From: Vicinamibacterales bacterium
Lineage (GTDB): Bacteria; Acidobacteriota; Vicinamibacteria; Vicinamibacterales; 2-12-FULL-66-21
Direction: 5' to 3'
Assembly (NCBI GenBank): GCA_035637115.1
Contig: DASPXV010000059.1
Location: forward strand, 24,242-88,241
DNA length: 64,000 bases
Under the pieces are notes generated by a model. That model saw nothing but the letters and a program-made list of their open reading frames with translations. It was not told the origin of the DNA and did no database searches. Numbering within the stretch: position 1 is the stretch's first letter; every line of letters starts with the position of its first letter. Shown here piece by piece: positions 611 through 49,669 of the stretch. The position numbers and the translations under genes are program-made.

Positions 611-2056
611 TTAGCCGACCGATCCTTCCAGGCTGACACTGAGGAGCTTCTGCGCTTCCACCGCGAATTCCATCGGGAGCTCGCGGAACACTTCCTTGCA
701 GAAGCCGCTGACGATCATGTTGACGGCGTCTTCCGTCGGCAGGCCGCGCTGGCGGCAGTAGAAGATCTGGTCTTCGCCGATCTTCGACGTGGACGCTTCG
801 TGCTCGACCTTCGCCGACGTATTGCGAATCTCGAGATACGGGAACGTATGCGCACCGCACTTGTCGCCGATCAGCAGCGAATCGCACTGCGAGTAGTTGC
901 GGGCGTTCGACGCGTTCTTGCCGATCCGCACCAGGCCGCGGTACGTGTTCTGGCCGTGGCCGGCGGAAATCCCCTTCGACACGATCGTGCTGCGGGTGTT
1001 CTTCCCGAGATGCACCATCTTGGTGCCGGTGTCCGCCTGCTGCCAGTTGTTCGTCGTCGCCACCGAATAGAATTCGCCGATCGAGCCGTCCCCCTGCAGG
1101 ATGCAGCCCGGGTACTTCCAGGTGATCGCCGAACCGGTTTCGACCTGCGTCCAGGTAATTTTCGAATGCCGCCCCTGGCACAGACCGCGCTTCGTGACGA
1201 AGTTGTAGATCCCGCCCTTGCCTTCCTTGTCGCCGGGATACCAGTTCTGGATCGTCGAATACTTGATGGTCGCATCGTCGTGCGCGACGAGCTCGACGAC
1301 AGCGGCGTGGAGCTGGTTTTCATCGCGCATCGGCGCCGTGCAGCCCTCGAGATAGCTCACGTAGGAGCCCTCGTCCGCGATGATCAGCGTGCGCTCGAAC
1401 TGCCCCGTGTCCTTCGCGTTGATGCGGAAGTAGGTGGACAGCTCCATCGGGCAGCGGACCCCCTTCGGCACGTAGACGAAGGAGCCGTCGCTGAACACCG
1501 CCGAGTTGAGCGCGGCGAAGAAATTGTCGGTGTGCGGCACGACGGAGCCGAGATATTTCTTCACGAGATCCGGGTGGTGCTGTACCGCCTCGGAGAACGA
1601 CATGAAGATGATCCCCATGCTCGCGAGCTTGTCGCGGAAGGTCGTCGCGACCGAGACGCTGTCGAACACGGCGTCAACCGCGACGCCCGCGAGGAGCTTC
1701 TGCTCTTCGATCGGGATGCCGAGCTTGTCGAAAGTCGCCTTCACCTCGGGATCGACTTCGTCGAGGCTGTTCAGCGCTTTCTTCTTCTTCGGCGCCGAGT
1801 AGTAAATGATGTCCTGGTAGTTGATCGGGTCGTACTTGACGTTCTGCCAGCTCGGCTCCTTCATCGTGAGCCAGAGGCGATACGCCTTGAGACGCCACTC
1901 GAGCAGCCACTCGGGCTCGTTCTTCTTCTTCGAGATGAGCCGCACGACGTCCTCATTGAGTCCCTTCGGGATCGACTCGCTCTCGACGTCGGTGATGAAG
2001 CCGTACTTGTACTCGCGATTGGCGAGTTGTTCGATGGTCTCAGTTGCTGTGCTCAT
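611..2056 (-). CDS. sufB: Fe-S cluster assembly protein SufB
   Basis: 481-aa ORF: [27 protein letters not shown]...[34 protein letters not shown]... This is typical full-length SufB. Confidence 0.95.
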
Positions 2057-13786: not shown

Positions 13787-15238
13787 ATGGCGCTCCCCTC
13801 CCCGACTGTTGAGAACTACCTGAAGGCGATCTTCCAGGCGCAGCTGCACCTCGAACGACGGACCGGTCTCGTGCCGATGGGCCAGCTGGCTGCCGCCCTG
13901 GGCGTCGTGCCTGGAACGGCGACGACGATGGTGAAGACGCTGGCGGACTCGGGGCTGGCGAAGTACGAGCCCTACGCCGGCGTGCGCCTGACGCCTTCCG
14001 GCGAGAAGCTCGCGGCGCTGGTCGTGCGGCGTCACCGATTGATCGAGTTGTTCCTGGTAAAAGTGATGGGCATGAGCTGGACCGAGGTCCACGACGAAGC
14101 CGAACTGCTGGAGCACGCGGTGTCGGATCGGCTGATCGAGCGCATCGACGAAATGCTCGGCCGTCCGGAAGCAGATCCACACGGCGATCCGATTCCCGAC
14201 GCGGAGGGAGTACTCGAGCGGCGTCCGTTCGACACACTGCTCACATGCCCGTTGAATGCACCGGTGACGGTGCGGCGCGTGACCGATCAGGACCCGGAGT
14301 TCCTGCACTTCGTTGAACGCCGCGATCTGAAGCCGGGCGAGACCGTGGAAGTGATCGAGCGGGATGCGGCAGCGGACAGCGTGCGCGTGCGCGGCCGCAA
14401 AGAGCGCGCGATCACGATCGGCGCGCGTGCCGCGTCGAAGGTGCTCGTGCAACTGGCGACGGTCGCCACCATCGTTCTCGCGTTCGCGGCGGCCGGGTTC
14501 GCGCAAACGGTGGCGCCGCAGCCGGCAGCGCAACCGTTCCAGATTCTCGACAACTCATTCTTCGTCGAGGAAGCGTTCAACCAGGAGCGCGGGATCTTCC
14601 AGAATATTTTCGGCATGAGGCACGAGGGGGGGGACTGGCAGCTCACGTTTACGCAGGAGTGGCCGGCGCCGGCGCAGCGGCATCAGCTCTCCTACACGGT
14701 CGCGGCGGAATCCGTCGGGTCGAAGTCAGGCTTTGGCGATGTCTATCTGAACTACCGGTTCCAGGCGTTGGAGGAAGCCGGCGGACATCCCGCGTTCTCG
14801 CCGCGCGTCAGCGTCATCGTTCCATCGGGACGGCAGTCAACAGGCGCCGGCGAAGGCGGACTGCAGGTGAATCTCCCGTTCAGCAAGCAGCACGGCGACG
14901 TCTACTTTCACTGGAATGGCGGCTTCACGTGGCTGCCGCGCGGCGAGCGCGTCGATCTCGTCTCGCCTACGCTCGCCGGAAGCGCGATCTACCGACTCAG
15001 GCCGATGCTGAATCTGATGCTCGAGTCCGTCCTGGCGTTCGACGCCGATGAGACTTCACCCGGCATCGTCGAACGGACACGCGCGTTCACTCTGTCTCCG
15101 GGAGTGCGCGGCGGATGGAACGTGGCCAAGGACACGCAGCTGGTTCTTGGCGCGGCACTGCCGATCACACGCGTCAGTGGTGACGCGTCGGTCGGCGTGT
15201 TCGGGTACGTGTCGTACGAATTACCGTTCGTGAAGTGA
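13787..15238 (+). CDS. DtxR/MntR-family metal-dependent regulator (aa 1-221) read through, without a stop, into a signal peptide and a beta-barrel-like outer-membrane protein (aa 222-483)
   Basis: N-terminal part: ...TVENYLKAI...VRLTPSGEKLA...RRHRLIELFL...HDEAELLEH..., plus an SH3/FeoA-like tail. Then comes LATVATIVLAFAAAGFAQT and a segment with alternating beta-strand-like pattern ending ...GYVSYELPFVK. Confidence 0.7.
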   Translation: MALPSPTVENYLKAIFQAQLHLERRTGLVPMGQLAAALGVVPGTATTMVKTLADSGLAKYEPYAGVRLTPSGEKLAALVVRRHRLIELFLVKVMGMSWTEVHDEAELLEHAVSDRLIERIDEMLGRPEADPHGDPIPDAEGVLERRPFDTLLTCPLNAPVTVRRVTDQDPEFLHFVERRDLKPGETVEVIERDAAADSVRVRGRKERAITIGARAASKVLVQLATVATIVLAFAAAGFAQTVAPQPAAQPFQILDNSFFVEEAFNQERGIFQNIFGMRHEGGDWQLTFTQEWPAPAQRHQLSYTVAAESVGSKSGFGDVYLNYRFQALEEAGGHPAFSPRVSVIVPSGRQSTGAGEGGLQVNLPFSKQHGDVYFHWNGGFTWLPRGERVDLVSPTLAGSAIYRLRPMLNLMLESVLAFDADETSPGIVERTRAFTLSPGVRGGWNVAKDTQLVLGAALPITRVSGDASVGVFGYVSYELPFVK

Positions 15239-15631
15239 GTACGTCGCGACGGACGTCGGGGTTTCCCAGACTCTAACGGACTGAATGTCCACACCGAGCT
15301 CGCGCCCGTTGTCGAAAATCAGTTTCGCGATGCGCTCGACGGTGGGATTACTCTCGAGCAGGTACATCGGTTCGCCGAGCTTCCGCAGCGGCTCGACGAG
15401 CGGATCGTCCTGGCGCAGAATCATCTTGTGGTCGAGTTCGCGATCGATCCAGCCTTTGACGATCCGCTTGATGTCGCTGAAGTCGACCACCATGTTGCGA
15501 TTGTCGAGGCTGTCGGTCCGCACGTCGATTTCGACGGACGCATTGTGACCGTGCGGATGCTTGCACACGCCGTCATAGTCGAGCAGGCGGTGTCCGTAGC
15601 AGAACTCGATGCGCTTGGTCACGAGGTACAT
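15221..15631 (-). CDS. queD: 6-carboxy-5,6,7,8-tetrahydropterin synthase (QueD/PTPS family)
   Basis: MYLVTKRIEFCYGHRLLDY...CKHPHGHNASVEI...VVDFSDIK..., including the His/Cys catalytic motifs. Confidence 0.85.
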   Translation of the reverse strand: MYLVTKRIEFCYGHRLLDYDGVCKHPHGHNASVEIDVRTDSLDNRNMVVDFSDIKRIVKGWIDRELDHKMILRQDDPLVEPLRKLGEPMYLLESNPTVERIAKLIFDNGRELGVDIQSVRVWETPTSVATYSLHER

Positions 15632-16328
15632 GTCTCACGAGTATAAAGCCACCGGCGTGCTGTTTTCCGGCGGGCTCGACAGTGCAGTGCTCGCTGCACA
15701 AGCGGCACGTGAAGGTGCGGTGCGCACGCTGTACATCAGCGTCGGCTTCGCGTGGGAGGCGGAAGAACGCGCGATGGCCGCGCGGCTTTTCTCGCGGCCG
15801 CCGTTCGCCGGCCACGTCGATCCTCCGGTCGAACTCGCCTTCGATATGCGTGACGTCTTCCCGCCCGACTACTGGGCGGTCCGGGGTGTCGCGCCGGCAT
15901 TCGATACACCGGATGAAGACGTGTACCTCCATGGACGGAACATCATCCTGCTCTCGAAAGCCGCGGTATACATGGCGGCAGCGTTGTCGAAGCAGCACGT
16001 TCGCGTCATGCGGCTGCTGATGGGGCAGCTCGCCGGCAATCCCTTCCCTGATGCCACGCCGGCATTCCTCGCCGCCACAGCCACCTCGCTTTCGCTCGGA
16101 TTGTCGATGTCGATCGAGGTGGCGACGCCGTTCGCGTCGCTGAGCAAGGCGGATGTGATCCGTCGAGGCGTGGAGCTCGGCGTGCCGCTGGAGCTCACGC
16201 TGTCGTGCATGCAGCCACGCGGGGGATTGCACTGCGGCCGCTGCAGCAAATGCAGAGAGCGGCGCGACGCCTTCAGGCAGGCAGGTGTGATCGATCCGAC
16301 GCGGTACGAGAGCGCGCCGATCCGCTGA
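15630..16328 (+). CDS. queC: 7-cyano-7-deazaguanine synthase
   Basis: MSHEYKATGVLFSGGLDSAV is a PP-loop, and ...SCMQPRGGLHCGRCSKCRERRDAF is the zinc cluster. An alternative ATG start lies at 15609. Confidence 0.85.
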   Translation: MSHEYKATGVLFSGGLDSAVLAAQAAREGAVRTLYISVGFAWEAEERAMAARLFSRPPFAGHVDPPVELAFDMRDVFPPDYWAVRGVAPAFDTPDEDVYLHGRNIILLSKAAVYMAAALSKQHVRVMRLLMGQLAGNPFPDATPAFLAATATSLSLGLSMSIEVATPFASLSKADVIRRGVELGVPLELTLSCMQPRGGLHCGRCSKCRERRDAFRQAGVIDPTRYESAPIR

Positions 16329-22759: not shown

Positions 22760-22998
22760 CTCGATCTGGAACACCTCGCAGCCAGCTCACCCAAAAGGAC
22801 TTAGCGCCAGAATTTGGTGATGCTGTCTCAGGACGGGACAAGCGCGCACCACTCTTCGACGCGCGTCATTTTGGGGAACACCAGACCCAGCACGTAACGC
22901 CATTGTAATCATGAGCTTACGAAACTGTGCTTCTGGACCGTTTTCGGCAGACAGATTGCAAAACCGCTGGGCCGGGCGCCCCGCGCCTCCCCTGCGAA

Positions 22999-24870
22999 AT
23001 GTCCCGAAAGTTCGTCGTCATCGCCGCCCTCCTGACGGTATTTCGGGCCGCGCCGGTCTTTGCCGCGCCGGCCGAAAGACCGTCCGCGGGTGAAAGCAAG
23101 CTCGATCGCGAGCTCCAGGCCCGCGCGCGCGTGCCGCGTGGCAGCTCGCGCGTCATCCTCCGGCTGACTCCTGGCGTTTCCCCCGCGTCCGCTGAACGCG
23201 CCATCCGCAGCTTCCGCGGAACGATCGGCCGCCGCCTCGCGTCCGTTGGCGGTCAGGTCGCGTACGTTCCCGACGGCTCGCTCGACGCGCTTGGGCGCGT
23301 ACCGGGCGTGTCGAGCGTGAGCCTCGATCGCCGCGTGCAGGGAACGCTGGAGCGCACGGGCGGCACCATCGGTGCGAACTGGGTCCGCGAGAACCTCGGG
23401 TTCGACGGCACGGGCGTCGGCGTCGCGATCATCGATTCGGGCGTCGCCAACTGGCACGACGACCTCGGCAGCGCCCGTGTCTCGCGCTTCGTCGATTTCG
23501 TGAACTTCCAGACCGCCGCCTATGACGACTATGGCCACGGAACCCACGTCGCGGGGGTAATCGCGGGGGACGGCCACGACTCCGAGGGACGCCGCAGCGG
23601 CATCGCGCCTGGCGCCACGCTGCTGGTCGAGAAAGTCCTCGACGCGTCGGGTCAGGGATATATCAGCAACGTCATCGCCGCGATCGATTACGCGATCGCA
23701 AACAAGGACGAGCTCCACATCCGCGTCCTCAATCTCTCGGTGGCCGCGGGTGTTTACGAGTCGTACAACACCGATCCGCTGACGCTCGCCGCGAAGCGCG
23801 CCGTCGAAGCGGGCATCGTCGTCGTCTCCGCCGCGGGCAATCTTGGGAAGAATGCGGAGGGACAGCCGCAGTACGGCGGCGTCGGTGCCCCCGGCAACGC
23901 GCCGTGGGTGATCACGGTAGGCGCCTCGAGCCACAACGGCACGACGGATCGGTCGGACGACACGGTCGCGGGATTCAGTTCGCGCGGACCGAGCGCGATC
24001 GATTTCCAGGCGAAGCCGGATCTCGTCGCGCCCGGCGTCGGCATCGAGTCGATCGCGGAAGCGGGCAGCACGCTGTGGAACACCAAGCCGCTGATGCGGC
24101 TGTGGGGCACGGTCCCGACCGCGACCGAGCCGTACCTCTCTTTGAGCGGCACGAGCATGGCGGCCCCAGTCGTCACCGGCACGATCGCGCTGATGCTGCA
24201 GGCGAACCCGGCGCTCACACCGAACCTCGTAAAGGCGGTCCTGCAGTTCACCGCCGAAACGCACACCGCTTACAACGGCCTCACGCAGGGTGCGGGATTC
24301 CTGAACGCGCACGGCGCGGTGGATCTGTCGCGCTCGGTCGCAACCGGCGCGTCTCTCGATGCGTCAAACGTGACGACCACCACCGACACGGTCGAGTGGG
24401 GACGCCGGATCATCTGGGGCAACCATCGCGTGGGGGGCGGCGAGCTGCGCGCGGATGCGAGCGCCTGGCGCACCGACGTGATCTGGGGCAGCGGACTCAC
24501 GCCTGACGGGTCGCCCGTCGTCTGGGGCACGGCATGCACCGGTGACTCCGAGTGCGACAATATCGTCTGGGGCACGACGTGCGACACCGCCGAGTGCGAC
24601 AACATCGTGTGGGGCACGGAGTGCGGCGGCGCCGACTGCGACAGCATCGTCTGGGGCACCGCGTGCGACAGCGCCGAGTGCGAAAAAACCGTCTGGGGCA
24701 CCGCGAGCGAGAGTGACAACATTGTTTGGGACATGGACGCCGACGGGGAAAACGACAATATCGTCTGGGGCACCAACGTCCTCGATGAATCCGACAACCT
24801 TGTCTGGGGCGCGCCGGCGATCCGGCGGCAGTCCCGGATTCTCACCGTGATCGATCCCTGGTTTAAATGA
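22999..24870 (+). CDS. Secreted subtilisin-like (S8) serine protease with a C-terminal xxIVWG repeat region
   Basis: The signal peptide is MSRKFVVIAALLTVFRAAPVFAAPA. The Asp/His/Ser motifs are VAIIDSGV, HGTHVAG and SGTSMAAP. Confidence 0.85.
   Translation: MSRKFVVIAALLTVFRAAPVFAAPAERPSAGESKLDRELQARARVPRGSSRVILRLTPGVSPASAERAIRSFRGTIGRRLASVGGQVAYVPDGSLDALGRVPGVSSVSLDRRVQGTLERTGGTIGANWVRENLGFDGTGVGVAIIDSGVANWHDDLGSARVSRFVDFVNFQTAAYDDYGHGTHVAGVIAGDGHDSEGRRSGIAPGATLLVEKVLDASGQGYISNVIAAIDYAIANKDELHIRVLNLSVAAGVYESYNTDPLTLAAKRAVEAGIVVVSAAGNLGKNAEGQPQYGGVGAPGNAPWVITVGASSHNGTTDRSDDTVAGFSSRGPSAIDFQAKPDLVAPGVGIESIAEAGSTLWNTKPLMRLWGTVPTATEPYLSLSGTSMAAPVVTGTIALMLQANPALTPNLVKAVLQFTAETHTAYNGLTQGAGFLNAHGAVDLSRSVATGASLDASNVTTTTDTVEWGRRIIWGNHRVGGGELRADASAWRTDVIWGSGLTPDGSPVVWGTACTGDSECDNIVWGTTCDTAECDNIVWGTECGGADCDSIVWGTACDSAECEKTVWGTASESDNIVWDMDADGENDNIVWGTNVLDESDNLVWGAPAIRRQSRILTVIDPWFK
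24409..24810 (+). repeat. Ten coding repeats of (I/V/L)(I/V)WG spaced 8-20 aa apart, many as CDNIVWGT
   Basis: Recurrent ATCGTCTGGGGC-type motifs encode IIWG, VIWG, VVWG, IVWG x3, TVWG, IVWD, IVWG and LVWG. Confidence 0.75.
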
Positions 24871-33865: not shown

Positions 33866-35089
33866 TCAACTCAGCGCCCTCCCCTTCGTCTCAGGTATCC
33901 AGATCCAGAACATCGCGGCGAGCAGGAACGCGGCGGAGCAGACGAGCAGCGCCTGGCCGAAGCCGCGCGTATCGGCGAGGGTGCCGACGAGATACGGCGC
34001 GGCGGCGCTCGCGAGGCGGCCGATGTTGTACGTGAAGCCCTGCGCCGTTGCGCGCACGGCGGTCGGATAGATCTCCGCCGTCACGGCGCCGAAGCCGCTG
34101 AAATATCCGGTCGCGGCGAAAGCGACGCACGGGCCGAGCACGAGCAGCAGCATCGGGTTCCTCACGGTGACGTAAATCGCGAGGAGTACCGCCGCCGCGA
34201 GCAGGTAGCTGACATACGCCGCCTTGCGGCCGATGCGATCGCTGATGAATCCAAACGTCACATATCCGACCCACATGCCTGCCTGCATCACGAACAAATA
34301 GCTGGTGGTCGTGGCGCCGCTGAGTCCCGCACCTCCCTGCGCTGGCGAGGACTTCAGATAGCTCGGGAGCCACAGATTGAAGCCCCACCACGCGAACAGC
34401 GTGCAGGTGTTCATCAGCGTGAGGATCACGGTGAGCCGCCCGATCCCGCTGCGGAAAATCGTCAGGAAACCGGCGGACCCGGCACGCGACTTCGCCGACA
34501 TGGTCCAGATGGCCGGTTCCTTTACTCGGCGCTGGACCCACAACGTGAAGAACGCCGGCAGAATGCCGACGAAGAACACGGCGCGCCAGCCGAAGCGCGG
34601 CTGCACGAACCCGGCGACGAGCACGGCGGCGGCATAGCCAATCGCCCAGCCGCTCTGCATGAAGCCGAGCGCGCGGCCGCGGCTCGAGGCAGGCCACGAC
34701 TCGGACACGAGTGCCGCGCCGCTCGACCACACGCCGCCCATTCCGAATCCGAGGAAGATGCGGAGCACGACGAACTGCGCGAGCGTGTTCGCGAAGCCGC
34801 ACAGGAACGTGAAGACCGAGTACAACGCGACGCTGAGCATGAGCGCGCGCGTGCGGCCGAATCGATCCGCGATCCGGCCCGAAATCACGCCCCCGACCGC
34901 GGCGGCAACGAGCATGACGGATCCGAGGATGCCACCCTGCGCCTTGGTAAGCGCGAGATCTGCGCTGACGGCCGGCAACACGAGCGCGAACAACATCACA
35001 TCGAACGCGTCGAGCATCCAGCCGAACGTGCCGGCGGCGAGCCCGCGGTGCGCGTCACTGCCCGCTTCGCGCCACCAGCCCGGTGTCAT
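33866..35089 (-). CDS. MFS transporter
   Basis: 407 aa with roughly 12 hydrophobic helices and ...GRIADRFGRTRAL..., an MFS loop 2-3 motif. Confidence 0.85.
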   Translation of the reverse strand: MTPGWWREAGSDAHRGLAAGTFGWMLDAFDVMLFALVLPAVSADLALTKAQGGILGSVMLVAAAVGGVISGRIADRFGRTRALMLSVALYSVFTFLCGFANTLAQFVVLRIFLGFGMGGVWSSGAALVSESWPASSRGRALGFMQSGWAIGYAAAVLVAGFVQPRFGWRAVFFVGILPAFFTLWVQRRVKEPAIWTMSAKSRAGSAGFLTIFRSGIGRLTVILTLMNTCTLFAWWGFNLWLPSYLKSSPAQGGAGLSGATTTSYLFVMQAGMWVGYVTFGFISDRIGRKAAYVSYLLAAAVLLAIYVTVRNPMLLLVLGPCVAFAATGYFSGFGAVTAEIYPTAVRATAQGFTYNIGRLASAAAPYLVGTLADTRGFGQALLVCSAAFLLAAMFWIWIPETKGRALS

Positions 35090-38000
35090 CGCTGCGGCGA
35101 ACTCGGACTCGAGCTGATGGCCGTGCGCGCGCCCTTGCCGGGCTTCACCGGGCGCACGCGCAGCATCGTCAGCGACACGGCATCGCGCGTTCCAGGCTCC
35201 TCGATGCGCTCGATCGTGAATTGGCCGTCGCGGAGGTAGTTCACGTGCGCCATGAGAAACGAGAAACCGGCTCTTGAGACGAGATTGAGCCAGTCCCCTT
35301 GCGCCGTCTCGTCCGGCGCCTCGGTCATGCCGACGTTGAAGGTGACCTGCGGGTACTGGTTCATCGCCCTTCCGCCACCACTACCGCCGCCGCGCCCGCC
35401 GCTTCCCGGCGTCGGTATGCGCCGGCTGCCGCGCGGCTCGCCAGTCTCCGGGTCCGTGTAGTAAATCGCCGTGTCCTTGTAGATCTCCTGGCCGTAGACG
35501 CTCGGACTGAAGCCGTACGCCCACTTGCGGTAGCGCGCCTGGCTGCGCAGGTTCATGGCGCGCACGTCGGCGTTGCGGTTGATCTCTTTCACGATGTCTT
35601 CACGCAGCGCCTCCGTCGCCTGAATCAGATCCGGCTCGCGCGGATCGCGGACGCCCGACAGGTTCGTGTACCAGCCCCGCGTCGACCAGTAGGTGCGGAA
35701 GCCGGGCGGCACGTAGCCGGCGAACTGCTGCACCCACTCGTGCGACGGATAGCCGTGCGGATTCAGGTAAATGTCTGGCAGCCACTCACGCCAGACCTTT
35801 CCTCGAACCTGCGATTCAGGCAGCAGCGCGCTGTTGCTCTCGACATCCTGCCCGAGGGCGCTGTAACGGCCGGCGTGGAGCATGTGTGTCGGCGTCAGCT
35901 TCTGAAGGTCGTACGCCATCTGTGCGCCGTCGGGGTTTGTCATCGGGTGGAGGATGACGTTCACCTTCTTGAGGATTTCCTTGTACGAAGGATCGGTCAC
36001 CAGCAGCTCACCGAGCTTGAGGATGTGATTGGTGGACGACACTTCGTTTGCGTGCTGGCGGCCGCTGATGAAAATCGTCGGCTTCAGCGCCGAGTACTTC
36101 GCCACCGAAATCATTTCGCTCTGCGTCGGGAGCGTGACTTCGAGGATCGAGATGTCGCGGCCGCGGTACGAGTGCCCGACTTTGTAGGCCTTCACCTCAG
36201 GGAACGCGGCCAGTTTGCGGATCAGCGCCTCCGACTGGTCCGGATCGATGATTTGATCGAAGGGGACGAACGCGCCTTTTGGCCGCGCGTCCGCAGTGCG
36301 GACGTTGCTCGGCGCGAACTCGCCGGTGCTGGGCAGGAGGAGCCGTCCGCGCCCATCCTTCGTCGCAATGGCGACGGCTACGCGATCGACTCGCGCGTAG
36401 GAAAGCTCAGTCTTGTACAACCCCGCCTCGTGCAGGCGCGCGAAGTTGTCGAGCATGTCGGCGGCGCGCAGCGCCTCGCGATCGTCGCGAGGTTCGATCT
36501 GCAGCTCGATCTCGTTGACGCGATCCGAAGTGACGACAGTCCGCACGGCGAGCGGCCCCGTGCCTTCGATTCGCGCCAGGTCGCGCTGCACGCGTGTGGG
36601 ACGTTCCTGACCTTTTTCTTTGTATGAGATCTCGAGCCGCGCGCGCGGCGCCGCATTGCCGGCGTAGAGCACCCGCGCCGATCCCGGCTTGCCTTCACGC
36701 GAGGGATGAATGATCGGGAAGACCTTCCCCGGTGCGTTCAGCCGCGCGTTCGTCGCGCTCAGGCTGCGTCCGATGGCGACGAAAAAGTCCAGCGTGTCGA
36801 AATACAGATCTTCGTGCAGCGACTCGAGTGACGACACGAGCTCCTGGTCGATGCCAATGCTGAAGTCCGGCTCGCTCATCCAGACCTCGATGTCGAAGTC
36901 GCGGTGATACGGCTGCTTGTCGGCTGTCGGCCGATTACCGGTCGTCCGCATCACGTAGTCGTAGACCTTCGGCAGCTCCTTCTGCTGGTACACGTCCCAG
37001 AAGCGCTCCGGGTCCGTTGCGATCCGCTGGTCGATCGCGCTCGCGCCGTCGACTGTGGCGGCGATCCATCCAGTCGTCACCTTCACGCGCGTCCACCCGG
37101 GAAACTTCTCGAGATACTCACGCTCCACCCACTTGGGGCTGAACGCCGCCTTGTAAACGACTTGGCCGGACGCGTTCTGCGCTTCGAGCGAGTACGTGTC
37201 CTTCGCAGCGTCCACGAGCTCCATCTGGAACGCCGCCTTCGGCAGTCCGAGATCGCGCTCGAAGATTTCATCGGCGGGATAGAGCTCGTGCAGCCAGCGG
37301 CTCGGGACTTCGTGGAACCGATACTTCTTCGTGAGGTCGGGATTGTTCGTCGCGACCTTGATGTACACGGACTTGGCGCTCTTGCCCTTTAACTCGGGCA
37401 GCACCTGCTCGGTCAGCCAGAGGTAGCCCTGCTTGTAGGCGGAGAGCACCTTCACCGAGGGATCCTTCGCGCCCGCCTTGACGAGCTCCTCTCGCGCTTG
37501 CGCCGCAATCGATTTTCGCAGTGCTGGCGATTCGCTGAGGCGCGTCTCGAGCGTCACCGTGGAGCCGGCTTTCACCTTCGGCAGGACGTCACTCCTGAAC
37601 TTTGACCAGAAGTCGTCAACCTCCCACGGAATGTCGAACTTGTCGTCGAACACGGTAACCGGATCGGTGATCCCCTGGCTGTTCACGGTGACGGGCGTGT
37701 CCTTCAGAAACGGCGACGCTTTGGCGCGCGCGGCGAAGTACTTCTCGAACGCGGGATTCGCCGCTTCGAGGTAAACCTTCGCTTCGAACGATTCGATCGT
37801 CTTTCCGTCGAGCGTCTTGAGCACGTCGTCGAGCTCGCGGATCGCCAGGCTCGCCTGACCGCCGCCGGTTTTGAGCGCGAGGAAATCCCCCGCATGCTCC
37901 TTCACATCGTCCAGCGACACCGCGCCGCGTGCGGTGTCCCAGAGGTACGGCAGCCTTCGCGCCAGGTACCATGCGGCAGCGTTCGTGCCCGCCGGGTCGG

Positions 38001-39615
38001 CGCCAGCGACCACCGTGGCTGTAGGCGCGCCAAAGGCCCGCGGCACGATCTGGATCGCCCCCTCACCGGGCTTCAAATCGTCGACGCGCGCCTTGCCAAT
38101 CTTCAGGAGCTGGCGCACCAGCTCGTTGTCCCGTCCGACGAGGATCGGATTCGGTTCCGCGGAGGGGTTTGTGATCTTGCGGCCGTCGCGCGCGAGCGGG
38201 AGCGTGATGCCTGTCGTCTCGAGACCCAGACGCGTCGCGATGTGGGCGGCGCCGAATGATTCCTTCGCGTTGCCGACCACGATCGCCGTCTCGAGGCGAT
38301 CGGGCAACAGGTCGACATATGAATCGCCGAACCATCCTTCGATTGAGTACGCGTTCGACAGATCGAAGGTCTTTGCCGGAATCGGAGCTACTTGCGCGCC
38401 GAACGGTCCGCCACCACCGCCCGCTTCCGTCGCAGCCGCATTTGCCGGCGGGGCCGTTCCGCCGCCGGGGCCGGAAGCCACACCTTCGGGTGTCTGCGCT
38501 TCGCCGCGGCCGCCGCCCGTGGCAGCCTCAGTTGGCGGAGGTGTTGTAGCAATGTCGCCGCGACCGGCGCCTCTTCCCGCGCCCGCAGGTTCCGTCGTTT
38601 CACCACCGCGACCGGCAGCCTCTCCGCGACCCGCGGCCTCTCCGCGACCCGCGGCCTCTCCGCGGCCGGCGCCGCGTCCGACCGCCGGAGCCGCCGCAAT
38701 AATAGTTGCGCCGCGGCCGAGTTCGTCGTCGGGCGGGGTCAGCGTGCGCGGATTCAATCCGGAGCGCCGCACCGTGGCGACGCCCGCCTTGCGCCCGTCC
38801 GCCCAGATCTCCACGACCGTCGCCGCCGCATTCATGTAATTAAGCGTGTCCGGCTCGAGACCGCGCCGGTGGGCGAGGTCAAGGTCCTCGATGACTCTCG
38901 TCGCTCTCGAGACGTCGCCCGGCGCGACGTCGAGCCGCAACGTGAGCTGCGCGAGACCGCGGCGATCGCTGTCCACGAGCATCGACGTGACGCCACGAAC
39001 CGTACCAACGAGGGCACGCGTGCGGAGGTAACCTGCGGCCTGGCTCTCCGCTTGTGAGATGCGCGCGCCGGTCGCGCCCCATAAGCGCGGGAGATTGACG
39101 GCGAGTTCATTCGCGGCGTTCAGCGTCCCCTCATCGTCCGCTCCCGCAATCGCGATCCCGTCCGGACCGCCGAGTGGAGACACGACGACGGCGAGCAGGC
39201 CCTGCCCTTTCTTGAGAGGCTTGAGATCGAGCGCGCCGCGCTCAATCAATCGCGCGATGTACTGGTTCCCGCGGCCGACGAGTATCGGAACCGCGATCGC
39301 GGCTGGCTGCTGCACGTCCGGCGCCTTGAGGACGACGGGAAGCGACAGCGCGGTCGTTTCGAACCCGAGGCGTCCCGCGATGTTCGCGGCCGCCTGGATG
39401 TCTTCGACCGAAGGCTCAGCCGCAACGATGACGCGTGCAGCGACGCTGTCGGCAAGGCCGTCTCCGTTCGTGTCGCGGACCGCGCCCGCGGCGATCGAGT
39501 AGATCGAGGCGAGTCCGGTGAGCTCGGCATGCTGTGCCGCGGCGGATTCGTCGCGCGGCGGATGCAGGCACATGAAGACAATGAGTGCGCCGAGCGCGGG
39601 TACGAAGCGTTTCAT
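35086..39615 (-). CDS. Very large secreted protein with a C-terminal M14 zinc-carboxypeptidase domain
   Basis: 1509 aa with a signal peptide and a duplicated N-terminal module (IAGRLGFETTALSLP.../IATRLGLETTGITLP...). The M14 motifs are ...ISGRQHANEVSS... (HxxE) and ...HPMTNPDG... Confidence 0.8.
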   Translation of the reverse strand: MKRFVPALGALIVFMCLHPPRDESAAAQHAELTGLASIYSIAAGAVRDTNGDGLADSVAARVIVAAEPSVEDIQAAANIAGRLGFETTALSLPVVLKAPDVQQPAAIAVPILVGRGNQYIARLIERGALDLKPLKKGQGLLAVVVSPLGGPDGIAIAGADDEGTLNAANELAVNLPRLWGATGARISQAESQAAGYLRTRALVGTVRGVTSMLVDSDRRGLAQLTLRLDVAPGDVSRATRVIEDLDLAHRRGLEPDTLNYMNAAATVVEIWADGRKAGVATVRRSGLNPRTLTPPDDELGRGATIIAAAPAVGRGAGRGEAAGRGEAAGRGEAAGRGGETTEPAGAGRGAGRGDIATTPPPTEAATGGGRGEAQTPEGVASGPGGGTAPPANAAATEAGGGGGPFGAQVAPIPAKTFDLSNAYSIEGWFGDSYVDLLPDRLETAIVVGNAKESFGAAHIATRLGLETTGITLPLARDGRKITNPSAEPNPILVGRDNELVRQLLKIGKARVDDLKPGEGAIQIVPRAFGAPTATVVAGADPAGTNAAAWYLARRLPYLWDTARGAVSLDDVKEHAGDFLALKTGGGQASLAIRELDDVLKTLDGKTIESFEAKVYLEAANPAFEKYFAARAKASPFLKDTPVTVNSQGITDPVTVFDDKFDIPWEVDDFWSKFRSDVLPKVKAGSTVTLETRLSESPALRKSIAAQAREELVKAGAKDPSVKVLSAYKQGYLWLTEQVLPELKGKSAKSVYIKVATNNPDLTKKYRFHEVPSRWLHELYPADEIFERDLGLPKAAFQMELVDAAKDTYSLEAQNASGQVVYKAAFSPKWVEREYLEKFPGWTRVKVTTGWIAATVDGASAIDQRIATDPERFWDVYQQKELPKVYDYVMRTTGNRPTADKQPYHRDFDIEVWMSEPDFSIGIDQELVSSLESLHEDLYFDTLDFFVAIGRSLSATNARLNAPGKVFPIIHPSREGKPGSARVLYAGNAAPRARLEISYKEKGQERPTRVQRDLARIEGTGPLAVRTVVTSDRVNEIELQIEPRDDREALRAADMLDNFARLHEAGLYKTELSYARVDRVAVAIATKDGRGRLLLPSTGEFAPSNVRTADARPKGAFVPFDQIIDPDQSEALIRKLAAFPEVKAYKVGHSYRGRDISILEVTLPTQSEMISVAKYSALKPTIFISGRQHANEVSSTNHILKLGELLVTDPSYKEILKKVNVILHPMTNPDGAQMAYDLQKLTPTHMLHAGRYSALGQDVESNSALLPESQVRGKVWREWLPDIYLNPHGYPSHEWVQQFAGYVPPGFRTYWSTRGWYTNLSGVRDPREPDLIQATEALREDIVKEINRNADVRAMNLRSQARYRKWAYGFSPSVYGQEIYKDTAIYYTDPETGEPRGSRRIPTPGSGGRGGGSGGGRAMNQYPQVTFNVGMTEAPDETAQGDWLNLVSRAGFSFLMAHVNYLRDGQFTIERIEEPGTRDAVSLTMLRVRPVKPGKGARTAISSSPSSPQR
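38618..38671 (-). repeat. 18-bp coding tandem repeat (x3) encoding AGRGEA units
   Basis: GCCTCTCCGCGACCCGCG occurs twice in identical form, followed by one diverged copy. Confidence 0.7.
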
Positions 39616-44835: not shown

Positions 44836-47046
44836 TCAGAACTCGATGAGAATGCCCACCGACGGAACGATCGGCAGCATCGAGTCGAACGGCCGCGACA
44901 CAGATCGCGACGACACGTTGATCACCGGTGGATCGAACCGCACGTTGGCGCGATTCAGCACGTTGATCACTTCGGCAAAAAGGGTGAGCCGCCGTCTCGA
45001 CCAGTCGAATGCCCGGTTCGCGCGGAGATCCAGGCGCGCGTAAACCGGCAGCCTCGCGCCGTTTCGTACATCGCTCAACTGGTACACGTCCGTACCGGAT
45101 TCCTTGGCATAGTAGCCGGGAATCGGGAAGTTGCTGCCGACGCGCAGCTTCGTGACAAAGCTGACGCGATCGGAGTGCCGGTACATGGCGTACGCGTTCA
45201 GTGTGTGGCGCTGATCGTTGTCCCCCCAGAACGATTCGTGCGAGACAACGTCCATGTCGCGGTTACGGCTATACGCGTAAGAGAACCAGCCGGAAATCCC
45301 CGCACGGGCGACCGTGCGCTGCACCATCAGCTCGACGCCGCGCGCGAAACCGTCAAGCCGGTTCTCGTACTTGGAGCTCGCGAGACGGCGGACGACGCGG
45401 CCGTTTACGACCCGCGTTTCATTGCCGAACTGCCTCAGCATCTGATCCTCTTCGCGGTCATACACTGTTGCGGTGAGTCGTAGAGAACGCGAAAGCCGCT
45501 GCTCGACGCCGATGTCGAACTGTGAGGCGCGTTCCGGAACGAGCCCGACGCCGCCCGACGCGCCGAGCACCTTGTCGAAGTCCGCGAACTGCTGATACTG
45601 TCCGGCGGCGCCGCGAATCTTGAATCCTTCGAACGCACGCCACTCCGCCTGGATCCACGGCGACGTCGTGGACTGCCGCGTCAGGTTCCAGTGATCCGCG
45701 CGCAGACCGGGCGCGATCGTGAGCGTTGAGCGTGGAGACCACTTCAGCAGGGCGTAACCGCCGGTCGCCGCTCCATTCGCGCTGTAGTCGTCGAGCTGCG
45801 CAAGCGTGAGGCGGTTGGACGCGAGGCGGCGTCTCACTCGCCGGTCGTCGCGACGCTCCGCCTCGCCACCGGCGTCCAACTCCAGCGCCGGGCTGACGAC
45901 GAACCTCGCATCCGCGCGATACGCGAGCTGACGATCTTTGCCGTTGTCGAGCTCGACGTCGGCCTGGTTCTCGTTCCTGAAATGGTTTTCGGCCGCGAGT
46001 ACGCGCTGCGTGAGAATCACGCGCGGCCGCGCGATGCGCCACGACGCAACGCCGACGACGGCCGCGTTCGTCGCATCGTAGACGTCGTCGATGTCGTGCT
46101 CCCCCGGCTCGTTCTGAAAACGTGAGTGCCCGGAGAGCAGCGTGACGTCGACGTGCTGCGACGGCGACACGTCGTACGCGAGCCGTGCCTGCGCATCCGC
46201 GAAGCCAAAGCTGACCCCGTGTTCCGTGAGATGACGAACCAGGTGATCGATGTACGACTGCCGTCCCGACACGAGCCAGGAGCCGCGGCGGTTCCGTCCG
46301 AACGGTCCTTCCGCGACAGCGGAGGCGCTCGTTCCGCTGACCGCGACGCGAAAGATGCGACGGTCCCGCGCCCCTTCGCGCAACCGGAAGTCCACCTCCG
46401 CCCCTGTATGTCCGCCATAACGCTGCGGATAGCCGCCGTTGAGCAGCGTCACGTCGTCCAGCACATCGCTGTTGATCATGGCGACGGAACCCGTCGGCCC
46501 GCGGTCCTCCACGCCGCGGACGGTGTGCAGCAGGTAGGGCGTGGCGAAGCCGTCGACGGTGAACGTGAGATGGCGGAAGTCGCTGCCGCGCACGGTGAAC
46601 TCACTGCGAAGATCGTCGCCGGTCGCGACGCCGGGGAGCACCTGCACCGCGCGAAGGGGATCGTCGGCAAGCACGCCGCGCAGGTTCAGGAGCTCAGCGC
46701 TGCCAAGGACGGATGCGGACGGAACGGGATCGGGCGGTGATCGGAACGTATCCCCTCTGACCGTCACGGACTCGCTGTAGGCGGTCGTCCCCTCGCTCAA
46801 TCGCACCACGACGGACGTGTTGTCCCGCGCGACCACTACTTGGGCTCTGAACACGGCGTAGCCGACGACAGAGACGTAGAGGCGGTGGACGCCTGGCGCG
46901 AGTCCCTCGATGCGCCAGGCACCGTCCGCGCCGGTCAGCACCGCCTGCCCGGTGTCTTCGATGACCACGCGGACACGTTCCAGCGGTGCCCCTGTCCGCG
47001 CATCGACCACCTGCCCGGCGAGAGGGGTCAAACCGGGGTCAGACAC
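44836..47046 (-). CDS. TonB-dependent receptor with a carboxypeptidase-regulatory-like domain; the true start probably lies upstream of the called GTG
   Basis: ...GQVVDARTGAPLERVRVVIEDTG...GAWRIEGLAPGVHRLYV... is followed by plug and barrel regions, ending ...VGILIEF. The called N-terminus lacks a signal peptide. Confidence 0.75.
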   Translation of the reverse strand: MSDPGLTPLAGQVVDARTGAPLERVRVVIEDTGQAVLTGADGAWRIEGLAPGVHRLYVSVVGYAVFRAQVVVARDNTSVVVRLSEGTTAYSESVTVRGDTFRSPPDPVPSASVLGSAELLNLRGVLADDPLRAVQVLPGVATGDDLRSEFTVRGSDFRHLTFTVDGFATPYLLHTVRGVEDRGPTGSVAMINSDVLDDVTLLNGGYPQRYGGHTGAEVDFRLREGARDRRIFRVAVSGTSASAVAEGPFGRNRRGSWLVSGRQSYIDHLVRHLTEHGVSFGFADAQARLAYDVSPSQHVDVTLLSGHSRFQNEPGEHDIDDVYDATNAAVVGVASWRIARPRVILTQRVLAAENHFRNENQADVELDNGKDRQLAYRADARFVVSPALELDAGGEAERRDDRRVRRRLASNRLTLAQLDDYSANGAATGGYALLKWSPRSTLTIAPGLRADHWNLTRQSTTSPWIQAEWRAFEGFKIRGAAGQYQQFADFDKVLGASGGVGLVPERASQFDIGVEQRLSRSLRLTATVYDREEDQMLRQFGNETRVVNGRVVRRLASSKYENRLDGFARGVELMVQRTVARAGISGWFSYAYSRNRDMDVVSHESFWGDNDQRHTLNAYAMYRHSDRVSFVTKLRVGSNFPIPGYYAKESGTDVYQLSDVRNGARLPVYARLDLRANRAFDWSRRRLTLFAEVINVLNRANVRFDPPVINVSSRSVSRPFDSMLPIVPSVGILIEF

Positions 47047-47102
47047 GGGTCTGACTCCGGTTTGAGCCCGGTCTGACCCCGGTTTGACCCCGGTTTGACC
47101 CC
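47025..47102. repeat. REP-like palindromic repeat cluster
   Basis: GGGGTCAAACCGGGGTCAGAC (47025..47045) is followed by its reverse complement twice. The copy at 47049..47069 has 2 mismatches and the copy at 47071..47091 is perfect. An extra GGTTTGACCCC follows. Confidence 0.8.
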
Positions 47103-47304
47103 ACGCCGGGGACGCGAGGAAAAGCGCGAGAAACCAAAAGTGTGATCGCAGCGGCGATTTTTGTCGCTGGGCTGAGCGCGAGATCCGCCGAAATGCCAGG
47201 AAAAACAGCGGTACGTCCCTTGCTCAATAGGGTGGTGCAGACGGTCTGTATATTTACGGCAGGGAGCCGTGAGTTGCTGGGGAGCCGGGCCGGCTGCAAA
47301 TCCT

Positions 47305-47338
47305 AAGGGCACCGTTGAAAAGCGGTGCCCTTTTTTTA
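47305..47338. terminator. Intrinsic terminator hairpin (T7 tract on the plus strand, weaker U-rich tail on the minus strand)
   Basis: AAGGGCACCG-ttgaaaag-CGGTGCCCTT followed by TTTTTTT. It lies 62 nt downstream of the minus-strand DGQHR gene stop. Confidence 0.65.
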
Positions 47339-47399
47339 TCCGGAGGAATATCGCGCCTCGGCAGCTCCGCAGACCTGTCGCGCTTCCCCCGGATAAACT

Positions 47400-48536
47400 T
47401 TAGACCGACGCGCCCTCCGGGTACTGCAGCGCGAGCCGCAGTTCCTTCGAGAGCGAATCCACCGTCGTCCCGGCGCGCTTCCAGGCCCCTTCGGTCTCGA
47501 ACCGCAGATCGCCGATGCGGCGGCCCCACGGGCTGATGACGCGGCCGATAGCGCGGAAATCCGTGCGGTCCGCGTGCTCCTGATCCAGCCGCCGGACGAC
47601 GTCGGGGGCGACGCGGATGAAGGCGCGGAGCGCTGACGCGCTCTTGATGCTGTACTTCCGGCCGTTCCATGCCGCGCCGAACACCTGGGCGACCTGCTTG
47701 AGGTAGTTCACGAAGAACTTCTTCGACTCTTCGCGGAACTCCTCCGCCTTGCGACCAGCGCCGAACGCTTCGGTGGCAAAGAGCTTCTTCAGCTCCTGCG
47801 CGAGCGGTGCCTGCGCGACGCGGCCGCCGCCGACGCCGAGCAGCTTGATCTCGCCATAGAGCGGTGAATCCTCGCGATCGTTGAGCGCGCGGACGACGTC
47901 GTGCGCCGCCGCGAGGTTCTCGTCGCGATAGAGCTGGCGACCGGACAGCGACACGAGATGCGACGCGTTCAGCCGCGTGTGCTTCGCGTTGATCGTCACG
48001 AACATCTGGACCACGTGATCTTCGGGGAGCCGATCGAAAATGATCGCGGGAACGGTGAAGCTTTCCTCGCCGAACCGGTCGATGTCCGCGTGGAGCGCGA
48101 GCAGCCGGTGCTGGCCGTCGATCGCGCGGAGGATGCCTTCGCGCTCGGGCACCTTCAGCGTGCCGAGCGGAGATCCGTTCTCGACAGGCTCGAATTTCAG
48201 CGCCTCGTCGCACGAGATGATGACGGCGCCGGCGATAGACGGGAGGTCGCGCGCCTGCCGGCACTGCTCGTAGTACTGGACCAGTTCGTCGATCTTCTTG
48301 CGGATGATCGCCCGCTGGTAGGCCTTCTCACTCGACGCGATACGCCGTTCGAGCAGGTCCCAGTTCACCTTCGACGGGGCGCTGCTCTTTTTGCGGCCGC
48401 CGCGCACGGGCTGCGCCTGTTCGCCGTAATCGAGCACCTCGAACCGGACGAGCTTGTCGATGTCGTTGGCAGAGAGAGACGCCTGGTAGAACTGCACCCC
48501 GAACTGCTGCATCCGGATGGCGGCGACGCTGATCAA
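47400..48536 (-). CDS. DGQHR-domain protein (DndB/DpdB-like, ParB/sulfiredoxin superfamily)
   Basis: ...ILRAIDGQHRLLAL... and ...VVQMFVTINAKHTRLNASHL... are the two hallmark motifs. The protein is 378 aa with native GC and codon usage. Confidence 0.8.
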   Translation of the reverse strand: MISVAAIRMQQFGVQFYQASLSANDIDKLVRFEVLDYGEQAQPVRGGRKKSSAPSKVNWDLLERRIASSEKAYQRAIIRKKIDELVQYYEQCRQARDLPSIAGAVIISCDEALKFEPVENGSPLGTLKVPEREGILRAIDGQHRLLALHADIDRFGEESFTVPAIIFDRLPEDHVVQMFVTINAKHTRLNASHLVSLSGRQLYRDENLAAAHDVVRALNDREDSPLYGEIKLLGVGGGRVAQAPLAQELKKLFATEAFGAGRKAEEFREESKKFFVNYLKQVAQVFGAAWNGRKYSIKSASALRAFIRVAPDVVRRLDQEHADRTDFRAIGRVISPWGRRIGDLRFETEGAWKRAGTTVDSLSKELRLALQYPEGASV

Positions 48537-48571
48537 TGGGCCTCCAGTAGCATGTTTATATTGTGTCGGCG

Positions 48572-49669
48572 CTAGAACATCAAGGGCTGAGCCCGACGGT
48601 TCAGCTTCTCACGTAAGTCGCGTTTCGCCAAATACTTACGCTTTGCGCTGTCCTTCACGACCGCGGCGCCGAGCATCAGCACCCAGAATACCCCGAGCGC
48701 AACCCACGCGCCTCCTACAGAAAACGCCCGGTGCAGCGGGTTCGAAACGATCCCGTAGACCATTTCGACGTGGATCCAGTAGATGAAAAGCGACGAGCGC
48801 CCGAGCACCTGAAGCGGGCTCCAGCGTAATCCCGCGCCCGGGCGCTGTTCCCACACCCAGGCGACACCGATCGCCGCGATCATGAGACCGAGACGCATGA
48901 AAAAGAAGCTCACCGACGTCGTCCAGAAGCTCGATCGGACGTCGAGCGGCGGCAGGAACGACGCTTCGTATGCGATGAACGCCAACGCAAACCCGCCGGC
49001 CAGCAACGCGATGTTCGTCCGGCGATCCTGGACATCGCTGCGCGCCATGTCGAGCACCACGCCGATCGCCGCACCCGCCGTCAGGAATGCGGCCCACGGG
49101 AAAAAAGTGAAGTTCGTGAGACCGGGGATAGGCCGAAGGTATCCCTCGATCGAATCAGGCAGTGACGCGAGTGCGCCGGCGTGGCGAATCAAAGGGGTGA
49201 CAAGAACGATCGCCAGCGTCGCCGCGATGAAACCGGCGATTCGCGCCTTCGGCGCGCGAAATAGCGCCCACACCCCCACGGCGGCGACCATCGATGGTCC
49301 CATCACGTTGAGAATGTCCACCTTCAGCAGCGTCCACGCGGGCGCATGACTGAGGATGAACGACTGGAATCGAAAGAGAAAGGCGAGCGCGAAAATCTGC
49401 AGCCCCCGCTTCCGGACCGCCGCCGCCGCCGCGCGCGAATCCCCCGACCGTCGCGCCTTGGAGCCTGCCGACATCGCGATCGCGACGCCTGCGAGGAACA
49501 GGAAGAGTGGAGCGGCAAAGCCGCCGAGGATGAGGGACTCGCCGAATGCACGCGACCGCCGATCCGCGACACGCGTCCACGAATCGATCACGTGCGCCTC
49601 GATCATGATCAGCACGGTCATGCCACGCAGCACGTCGAGATATCTCCGCCGAGCGGCGGGTGCGTTCAT
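48572..49669 (-). CDS. DUF1624/heparan-alpha-glucosaminide N-acetyltransferase-like membrane acyltransferase
   Basis: ...RRRYLDVLRGMTVLIMIEAHV... is followed by about 9 further TM helices. There is an ATGA overlap with the osmC-like gene. Confidence 0.65.
   Translation of the reverse strand: MNAPAARRRYLDVLRGMTVLIMIEAHVIDSWTRVADRRSRAFGESLILGGFAAPLFLFLAGVAIAMSAGSKARRSGDSRAAAAAVRKRGLQIFALAFLFRFQSFILSHAPAWTLLKVDILNVMGPSMVAAVGVWALFRAPKARIAGFIAATLAIVLVTPLIRHAGALASLPDSIEGYLRPIPGLTNFTFFPWAAFLTAGAAIGVVLDMARSDVQDRRTNIALLAGGFALAFIAYEASFLPPLDVRSSFWTTSVSFFFMRLGLMIAAIGVAWVWEQRPGAGLRWSPLQVLGRSSLFIYWIHVEMVYGIVSNPLHRAFSVGGAWVALGVFWVLMLGAAVVKDSAKRKYLAKRDLREKLNRRAQPLMF

Follow-up and report, generated by a model that had tools for sequence, protein, structure and literature searches.

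The stretch of DNA analyzed here (the window, 64,000 nucleotides [nt]) comes from a Vicinamibacterales bacterium (assembly GCA_035637115.1, contig DASPXV010000059.1, positions 24,242 to 88,241 of the forward strand). It contains a gene for a DGQHR-domain protein that an original prediction, made from the sequence alone, had described as a stand-alone relative of DndB and DpdB. The gene is preceded by a candidate promoter and faces a convergent gene for a small noncoding RNA, with the following features:

47400..48536, minus strand: gene for the DGQHR-domain protein (378 amino acids [aa], TTG start codon, isoelectric point of 9.25)
48541..48583, minus strand: candidate sigma-70-like promoter and Shine-Dalgarno sequence of the DGQHR gene, read from the sequence and from comparison of orthologues
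47185..47342, plus strand: small noncoding RNA gene, convergent with the DGQHR gene (covariance-model match, including the promoter)
47210..47224, plus strand: candidate sigma-54-type promoter of the RNA (GGTACG-N4-TTGCT, with GG-N10-GC spacing), by consensus only
47305..47339, plus strand: predicted intrinsic terminator of the RNA (12-bp GC-rich hairpin at 47305-47332, followed by T7)

The two hallmark motifs quoted in the original prediction, AIDGQHRLLAL and a second one, are both present in the open reading frame (ORF). NCBIfam TIGR03187 (DGQHR domain) matches residues 6 to 313 of the protein with 132.4 bits (E = 2.5e-38; cutoff, 58.85), and Pfam PF14072 (DndB) matches with 57.1 bits (cutoff, 29.1), its alignment running only to model position 243 of 338. 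The domain has been defined by a QR pair, a near-invariant DGQHR pentapeptide, and an FxxxN motif (PMC4619093). The corresponding residues here are Q74-R75, D140-G-Q-H-R144, and F179-V-T-I-N183, all of which are invariant in alignment A1, a set of diverged clade members down to 30% identity. As the profile scores exceed the curated cutoffs and the motifs are invariant in A1, the motifs are not a chance match, and the product is a genuine DGQHR-domain protein. The native composition ascribed to the gene was borne out: its GC content at third codon positions is 0.88, within the range of 0.76 to 0.88 of the window genes, and the local GC content is 0.63 to 0.65.

The likeness to DndB and DpdB does not extend to orthology. 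The protein scored 49.4 bits against TIGR04172, the equivalog model for dnd-associated DGQHR proteins (cutoff, 450), and 48.8 bits against the DpdB equivalog NF041060 (cutoff, 300), and TIGR03233 gave no report at E ≤ 1. Matches to PADLOC models were similarly weak (39 to 49 bits for DpdB; 28 to 49 bits for the DpdB and DndB models together). Because scores of about 49 bits fall far below both equivalog cutoffs, the protein is not orthologous to DndB or DpdB; it is a member of a distinct, uncharacterized DGQHR (ParB/Srx-superfamily) clade.

The DGQHR gene is under strong purifying selection and vertically inherited. More than 5,600 database clusters match the protein, the best 120 being 87 to 96% identical and 370 to 441 aa long (mostly 376 to 382 aa). 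A scan of one genome per GTDB species returned at least 425 loci, of which the best 80 (81 to 96% identity) are nearly all labeled Vicinamibacterales or Acidobacteriota, with a handful of metagenome-assembled genomes labeled otherwise. These 80 loci and locus L005 make up the 81 orthologous loci considered below. Across them, the median identity to the window is 84% for the DGQHR protein and 47 to 71% for the syntenic flanking genes, making the DGQHR gene the most conserved of its neighborhood. Its reading frame is intact in 81 of 81 orthologues, and its Nei-Gojobori ratio of nonsynonymous to synonymous substitutions (dN/dS) is 0.12 at a dS of ∼0.9, compared with 0.19 to 0.38 for its neighbors. 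The identity of the DGQHR protein to the window correlates with that of the flanking genes (Spearman rho, 0.61 to 0.91), in keeping with vertical descent. Relatives on IMG/VR viral contigs are only 21 to 32% identical, suggesting that the gene is not mobile, and a plasmid collection yielded only one distant DGQHR protein, from Lactiplantibacillus. The original prediction had overlooked that this gene is the most conserved of its surroundings.

The gene stands alone in the window, as had been proposed, and also in the 81 orthologous loci and in three lineages of more distant relatives. Within 10 kb of the 81 orthologues (∼1.4 Mb of flanking DNA), there is no dnd, dpd, ssp, or cas gene, and the immediate neighbors belong to many unrelated metabolic families. 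The gene directly upstream is a codirectional acyltransferase gene in 19 loci and a divergent M14 peptidase gene in 22 loci, and the downstream genes are of at least six unrelated kinds, including LamB/YcsF, M20, GDP-mannose dehydratase, hydantoinase, and a TonB-like receptor. The distant full-length relatives are likewise solitary among housekeeping genes: one with 57% identity, labeled Methylomirabilota, lies near an ABC transporter, GreA, and SurA; an unlabeled one with 38% identity lies near ThyX and a Ser/Thr kinase; and one from Planctomycetota with 31% identity lies near anthranilate synthase and RibBA. An apparently conserved downstream ORF of 115 aa ("Cluster 5") was an artifact of arginine-rich antisense frames. 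Our literature search found nothing on the DGQHR gene of Vicinamibacterales.

The candidate promoter of the DGQHR gene consists of a −35 element, TTGATG (48583-48578), and a −10 element, TATAAA (48560-48555), separated by a 17-nt spacer; a Shine-Dalgarno sequence, GGAGG (48545-48541), lies 5 nt 5′ of the TTG start codon. These signals overlap the stop codon of the upstream acyltransferase gene. A consensus promoter scanner made no call here, since the −10 element lacks the final T. The orthologues retain a TTGA..-N17-TATAAA or TACAAT box at a similar distance, regardless of the upstream gene or its strand. As the −35/−10 pair is kept whatever gene precedes it, the DGQHR gene probably has its own promoter and forms a stand-alone transcription unit.

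The 354-bp spacer 3′ of the DGQHR stop codon contains a conserved block that alignments of 31 to 38 copies resolve into four parts. A sigma-54-type site, GG(T/C)AC(G/A)-N4-TTGC, is in register across the aligned copies, and positions 47210 to 47224, the only match to GGYAYRNNNNTTGCW in the window, are a candidate sigma-54 promoter of the RNA. The predicted RNA is ∼105 nt long (∼47236-47340), and its core, ACGGCAGGGAGCCGUGAG-UUGCUGGGGAGCC, is nearly invariant. The long-range helix P1, in which compensatory changes occur, encloses a hairpin (P2; ACGGC-AGGGA-GCCGU) and an invariant GGGGAGCC stretch, and the terminator follows. The pairs of the terminator stem (helix 3) also covary across loci. 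In the RNAalifold structure, 94% of cells are paired, compared with 37 to 49% after sliding of the partners; both sides have changed in nine pairs, and none of 500 shuffles reached the observed values. The copy in the window has a minimum free energy of −52.7 kcal/mol (z = −5.2) and scores 147 bits with our covariance model, R1. No Rfam family matched at the gathering threshold in the whole window or at E ≤ 1 in positions 46950 to 47450 in an acceptable way: a weak match to CsrB (18.9 bits versus 71) was not accepted, and the other matches at E ≤ 1 were hairpin noise. A 54-aa plus-strand ORF over the RNA gene (47142-47306) is not coding, as it is not conserved and its indels are not multiples of three. 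The terminator, which lies 61 nt past the DGQHR stop codon, had been taken for a boundary of the DGQHR gene; the element exists, but its T run is on the plus strand, and the hairpin ends the convergent RNA gene. It may also end the DGQHR transcript.

R1 found the RNA in 72 of the 81 loci, always 3′ of the DGQHR gene. In 63 loci (convergent in 47, codirectional in 16), no more than 290 nt separate the two, and in 9 loci the distance is 0.75 to 2.8 kb; another 7 loci with enough flanking sequence gave no match. In the distant arrangements, whether from genomes or metagenomes, it is mostly GDP-mannose dehydratase and nucleotidyltransferase genes that lie between the DGQHR gene and the RNA. This insertion (GDP-mannose 4,6-dehydratase plus nucleotidyltransferase) marks one Vicinamibacterales sublineage (L043, L050, L051, L055, L066, L070, and L082) and is also seen in metagenome loci such as L131 and L165, the RNA then being codirectional and 2.1 to 3.0 kb downstream. 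As a reverse test, a metagenome scan was seeded on the RNA core and returned 120 contigs: 68 with a DGQHR gene, 29 that were too short, 15 in which the distant arrangement was cut by the contig end, and 8 exceptions. Of the 76 informative contigs, 68 thus have the DGQHR gene, and the RNA lies 3′ of it in each of them. The RNA is more constant beside the DGQHR gene than any protein-coding neighbor, although the linkage is not absolute. Comparison of the neighborhoods of close homologues, proposed as a check in the original prediction, gave 81 loci free of dnd, dpd, ssp, and cas genes within 10 kb but also a linkage to a small RNA that the prediction had missed. With R1, neither the surroundings of the distant solitary relatives nor the Myxococcota loci described below yielded the RNA. 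Our literature search found nothing on sigma-54 small RNAs in Acidobacteria.

A second association emerged among more distant relatives. A search with P0136, a relative 45% identical to the window protein, retrieved many proteins of 380 to 390 aa named Polyangiaceae, Sandaracinaceae, Anaeromyxobacter, Labilithrix, and other Myxococcota. These proteins are 43 to 45% identical to the window protein over the full length and of the same size. We examined three of the loci in 17-kb stretches (L229, 8001-9700; L230, 6832-16696; L231, 1362-17000). In all three, a conserved ORF of 150 to 201 aa, with an acidic linker and a conserved C-terminal RFDIDVV motif, lies 3′ of the DGQHR gene. In L230 and L231, the DGQHR gene and the small ORF directly precede cas7g (Csb1; TIGR02570), csb2, cas3, and a "type I-G Cas3-extension" gene; the third locus retains just a cas7g-family gene, ∼4 kb downstream. 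Upstream, two of the three loci have a gene for a WYL regulator, and the remaining one has cas4-cas1, cas2, and a CRISPR array of 36 repeats. The 17-kb stretches showed no cas8g (Csx17), which encodes a standard subunit of type I-G systems (PMC9638904). Among relatives of the DGQHR protein with any partner genes, the nearest are therefore encoded in type I-G CRISPR-Cas operons and not in clusters of dnd or dpd genes. In a neighbor-joining tree rooted with viral DGQHR relatives, the fast-evolving Myxococcota clade, with long branches, is sister to a slow clade of Vicinamibacterales, with short branches, plus Methylomirabilota; the solitary Planctomycetota and P0189 lineages are basal, in what is a rough tree of uncertain rooting. 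A tblastn search with the small ORFs and the Cas7g, Csb2, Cas3, Cas3-extension, and WYL proteins found nothing in the window or in loci L005 to L094, and the CRISPR repeat of L231 has no obvious similarity to the RNA by eye. We found no paper connecting DGQHR/DndB proteins with type I-G systems.

The layout of the protein was predicted from profiles and models. An N-terminal beta/alpha core carries the QR pair (74-75), the DGQHR motif with an overlapping Box II-like GxxRxxA (140-147), and the FxxxN motif (179-183); a basic disordered loop (charge, +4) is predicted at residues 38 to 58, and the C-terminal part (241-378) is predicted to be all helical and basic (charge, +8). The GxxRxxA string is G141-Q-H-R144-L-L-A147, with G, R, and A invariant in A1, and we equate it with Box II because the Box II of DndB reads GQHRVEA in a survey of ParB-CTPases (PMC12704722 supplement). 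In addition, a PHROG family of "ParB-like partition proteins" matches residues 119 to 193 (E = 8.6e-6). AlphaFold2 (AF2) models were only moderate (predicted local distance difference test score, 77 to 79; predicted template modeling score, 0.49 to 0.58). ParB-CDP (6sdk_B) was the top Foldseek match of the first model, a weak one, and ParB-CDP and PadC were among the top structural matches of the models, at nonsignificant levels. Sequence and profile searches of the PDB gave nothing meaningful. The C-terminal ∼170 aa had been described as resembling nothing recognizable. This holds in that a separate scan of the C-terminal 138 aa gave no Pfam match at E ≤ 10; the domain model nevertheless reaches residue 313, leaving only ∼65 aa outside it. 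A HEPN C-terminal domain has been reported for DndB (PMC3632139), and a scan of the C-terminal part gave no HEPN profile match. The sole C-terminal Rx4-6H string (R315/R316...H321) was rejected as a HEPN-like catalytic motif, being absent from P0124, P0136, and other members. Neither an HNH nor a DUF1524 nuclease domain was detected in the protein.

All genes of the window were annotated from precomputed Pfam hits on identical contigs and by direct scans. The same-strand order around the DGQHR gene is FTR1, OsmC, an Acyl_transf_3/HGSNAT-like membrane protein, DGQHR, a CarboxypepD_reg outer-membrane protein, and an M20 peptidase. There is no defense island: the neighbors are peptidases, transporters, OsmC, an acyltransferase, and sugar-nucleotide enzymes, and the DGQHR gene is conserved and vertically inherited rather than sporadic. 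The 64 kb contain no gene for a tRNA-guanine transglycosylase (TGT)-like DpdA, DpdC, DndC, DndD, DndE, SspB, SspC, SspD, Pbe, a Dpd-type helicase, or Cas, in agreement with the original prediction as far as TGT-like DpdA, the helicase, and DndCDE are concerned. Three further features need mention:

15221-15631, minus strand: queD, 31 to 32 kb from the DGQHR gene
15609-16328, plus strand: queC, 31 to 32 kb from the DGQHR gene
47024-47102: 11-nt tandem self-complementary array, six copies of the unit GGTCTGACCCC / GGTTTGACCCC

QueC and QueD supply preQ0 for tRNA modification. The two genes are where the original prediction placed them, but nothing supports the functional link to the DGQHR gene that it had raised: they form an ordinary divergent pair about 31 kb away, no DpdA-like transglycosylase accompanies them, and the pair looks like ordinary queuosine-pathway housekeeping. 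Their ORF calls overlap by ∼20 nt at the 5′ ends, and they come directly after a gene for an Fe-dependent repressor/FeoA fusion (13787-15238). The 11-nt array extends over the GTG codon annotated as the start of the CarboxypepD_reg outer-membrane gene. It had been read as a cluster of repetitive extragenic palindromes bounding the DGQHR gene; the array exists, but we reject that reading, as it is a single local array with no dispersed copies in the window or in the 81 related loci. Elsewhere in the window, two heptamer arrays that are reverse complements of each other, (TCCCAAT)x6 at 517-561 and (TTGGGAG)x6 at 567-610, stand back to back just downstream of a SufB/D-like gene (611-2056, minus strand) and would form a long hairpin. 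A 42-nt tandem repeat (24548-24710; 3.9 copies, 83% matches) lies at the 3′ end of a peptidase S8 gene (22927-24870). In a 1,509-aa protein (35086-39615, minus strand), the only matches are an M14 carboxypeptidase domain at the C terminus and a weak S-layer-like one; in 22 other genomes, the gene upstream of and divergent from the DGQHR gene encodes an M14 protein of 938 aa.

Of the characterized systems, DndB, the regulator of the dndBCDE operon for DNA phosphorothioation, belongs to the same domain family (PF14072/TIGR03187) as the window protein, is of similar length, and shares its QR, DGQHR, and FxxxN motifs. The gene for DndB, an ATP-modulated repressor, lies beside the operon under its control (PMC4507180; PMC10853773), and an ATP-modulated DNA-binding repressor adjoining its target is the working model that we adopt for the window protein. 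In contrast to DndB, besides the gap in equivalog score, the gene has no dndC, dndD, or dndE nearby across the 81 genomes, and it is inherited vertically and far more conserved than the sporadic dnd genes. DpdB is the ATPase that DpdA needs to insert preQ0 into DNA. It, too, combines a ParB-like DGQHR/DGQQR N-terminal domain with a helical C-terminal domain, and a homodimeric, NTP (nucleoside triphosphate)-gated DNA-binding model is plausible for both proteins; the window protein, however, scores far below the DpdB cutoff, and the window has no dpdA, dpdC, or other dpd gene. DpdB has been described as a DNA-stimulated ATPase (PMC10164549), and a DndB-like protein binds ATP and GTP (PMC12704722). 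With the ParB-CTPase fold (ParB, Noc, PadC, and KorB), the protein shares Box II and the PHROG match, but no ParB family profile reaches threshold, there is no parA partner, and no ParB-type helix-turn-helix is recognized; Vicinamibacterales already own a canonical chromosomal parB (PMC12704722 supplement). The DUF262-HNH effectors (SspE, DndI, and GmrSD) have a distantly similar N-terminal core, with GmrSD_N matching at 17.6 to 19.2 bits, below the Pfam cutoff of 33.2 bits, and differ in the DUF1524/HNH nuclease domain that the window protein lacks. The NTPase activity of SspE depends on its DGQxR motif.

We tentatively favor a reading, to which we give somewhat less than an even chance, in which the DGQHR clade of Vicinamibacterales is a vertically inherited, constrained, solitary regulator that is switched by a nucleotide, rather than a component of a Dnd system (DNA phosphorothioation) or a Dpd system (7-deazaguanine modification of DNA) or a decaying orphan. 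From Box II, the ParB-like match, the basic charge, and the precedents of DndB and DpdB, we infer a nucleotide-switched nucleic-acid-binding protein with a regulatory role, probably of a housekeeping kind. The ParB-like core would bind a nucleoside triphosphate through the intact GxxRxxA/DGQHR pocket, and the basic loop and basic helical C-terminal part would bind nucleic acid. By analogy with ATP for DndB and with ATP or CTP for DpdB and ParB, binding or hydrolysis of the nucleotide would switch the binding of nucleic acid. Most economically, the protein would respond to a nucleotide and act on its own neighborhood as a regulator or a chromatin-type factor, in which case the adjacent sigma-54-type small RNA gene would be the obvious candidate target.

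Several observations weigh against this reading. The models have no significant match to any solved structure, and since they are also only moderate, the fold rests on sequence profiles. The partner search covered 10 kb on either side, so partner genes could lie unlinked elsewhere in the genomes, and the place of the sister clade in CRISPR-Cas loci shows that proteins of this clade can serve defense. As for the RNA as a target, about 10% of its informative copies have no DGQHR gene nearby, two genes have been inserted between the two in one sublineage, and the linkage could reflect inherited synteny rather than function.

Two other explanations seem unlikely, though not negligible, the first by a hair less so. 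In one, the DGQHR protein and the small RNA form a functional pair: the protein might bind the RNA or regulate RNA transcription, or else its own expression might be regulated by the RNA. Of 81 genomes, 72 have the pair, 63 of them with no more than 290 nt in between; the adjacency survives inversion of the RNA; the independent RNA-seeded scan recovered the DGQHR gene in 68 of 76 informative contigs; and DndB-type regulators adjoin their targets. Few chance rearrangements would part elements separated by so short an intergenic distance, however, and the genomes all come from one order. The sublineage with two sugar-nucleotide genes in between, the 8 RNA copies without a nearby DGQHR gene, the 7 well-flanked loci without the RNA, and the distant solitary relatives that lack it also speak against a pair, and the RNA shows no complementarity by eye to the DGQHR translation-initiation region. 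In the other explanation, the protein acts in trans as a regulator or NTPase subunit of an unlinked Dnd, Dpd, Ssp, or type I-G CRISPR-Cas system. The characterized DGQHR proteins all work with partner enzymes, type I-G cas genes accompany the genes of the sister clade, dndA is frequently not linked to the remaining dnd genes (PMC3632139), and the preQ0 genes queC and queD are in the window. Yet dndBCDE occur sporadically, in only 1.8% of bacterial genomes (PMC8569181), whereas at least 80 species-level genomes retain this gene at 81 to 96% identity and with a signal of vertical descent. The long branches of the Cas-linked clade likewise contrast with the short branches and the dN/dS of 0.12 found here, and the ∼1.4 Mb of DNA flanking the gene in 81 genomes holds no partner.

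A broader proposal, which we consider improbable, makes the DGQHR protein and the sigma-54-type RNA a dedicated module and the whole clade a ParB-fold NTPase of RNA-guided or RNA-containing machinery. It would cover the Myxococcota relatives standing where cas8g is expected, and in the literature that we searched, such a role is undescribed for the ParB fold. Slightly more improbable again is a solitary defense effector, a ParB-superfamily enzyme that on infection degrades nucleotides or nicks DNA by itself. ParB/Srx-superfamily conflict proteins have been proposed as nucleotide-degrading or nuclease effectors (PMC10853773), and both the weak PADLOC matches to DpdB and DndB and the defense-linked sister clade fit this idea. 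The absence of an HNH/DUF1524 domain, the nonconserved Rx4-6H strings, and the housekeeping context without a defense island do not, and such extreme conservation with vertical inheritance is atypical of defense genes. The absence of partners in 64 kb might finally suggest a functionless, drifting orphan, the remnant of a dnd, dpd, or cas locus that was lost. The selection analysis refutes this, leaving it hardly any probability, because dN/dS is 0.12 at a dS of ∼0.9 and the gene is the most conserved of its neighborhood and descends vertically; the frame intact in 81 of 81 loci and the more than 5,600 matching database clusters stand against it as well.

Until now, the understanding of DGQHR/ParB-like proteins has been limited to that of accessories to mobile defense systems that modify DNA (Dnd, Dpd, and Ssp). 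The clade described here is domesticated looking and strongly constrained, and it has two unexpected associations, one with a sigma-54-type RNA and one, through its sister clade, with type I-G CRISPR-Cas. In an abundant, largely uncultured soil order, a DGQHR protein is now a core, slowly evolving gene product without a protein partner, which makes it a natural case for asking what a nucleotide-switched DGQHR module does alone. Each association provides a lead: a structured small RNA with a sigma-54-type promoter that is conserved across Vicinamibacterales and matched nothing in Rfam or in our literature search, and a type I-G variant in Myxococcota in which the effector operon starts with genes for a DGQHR protein and a small conserved protein, with no cas8g seen. 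The known repertoire of the ParB-CTPase fold would grow if either link proved functional.

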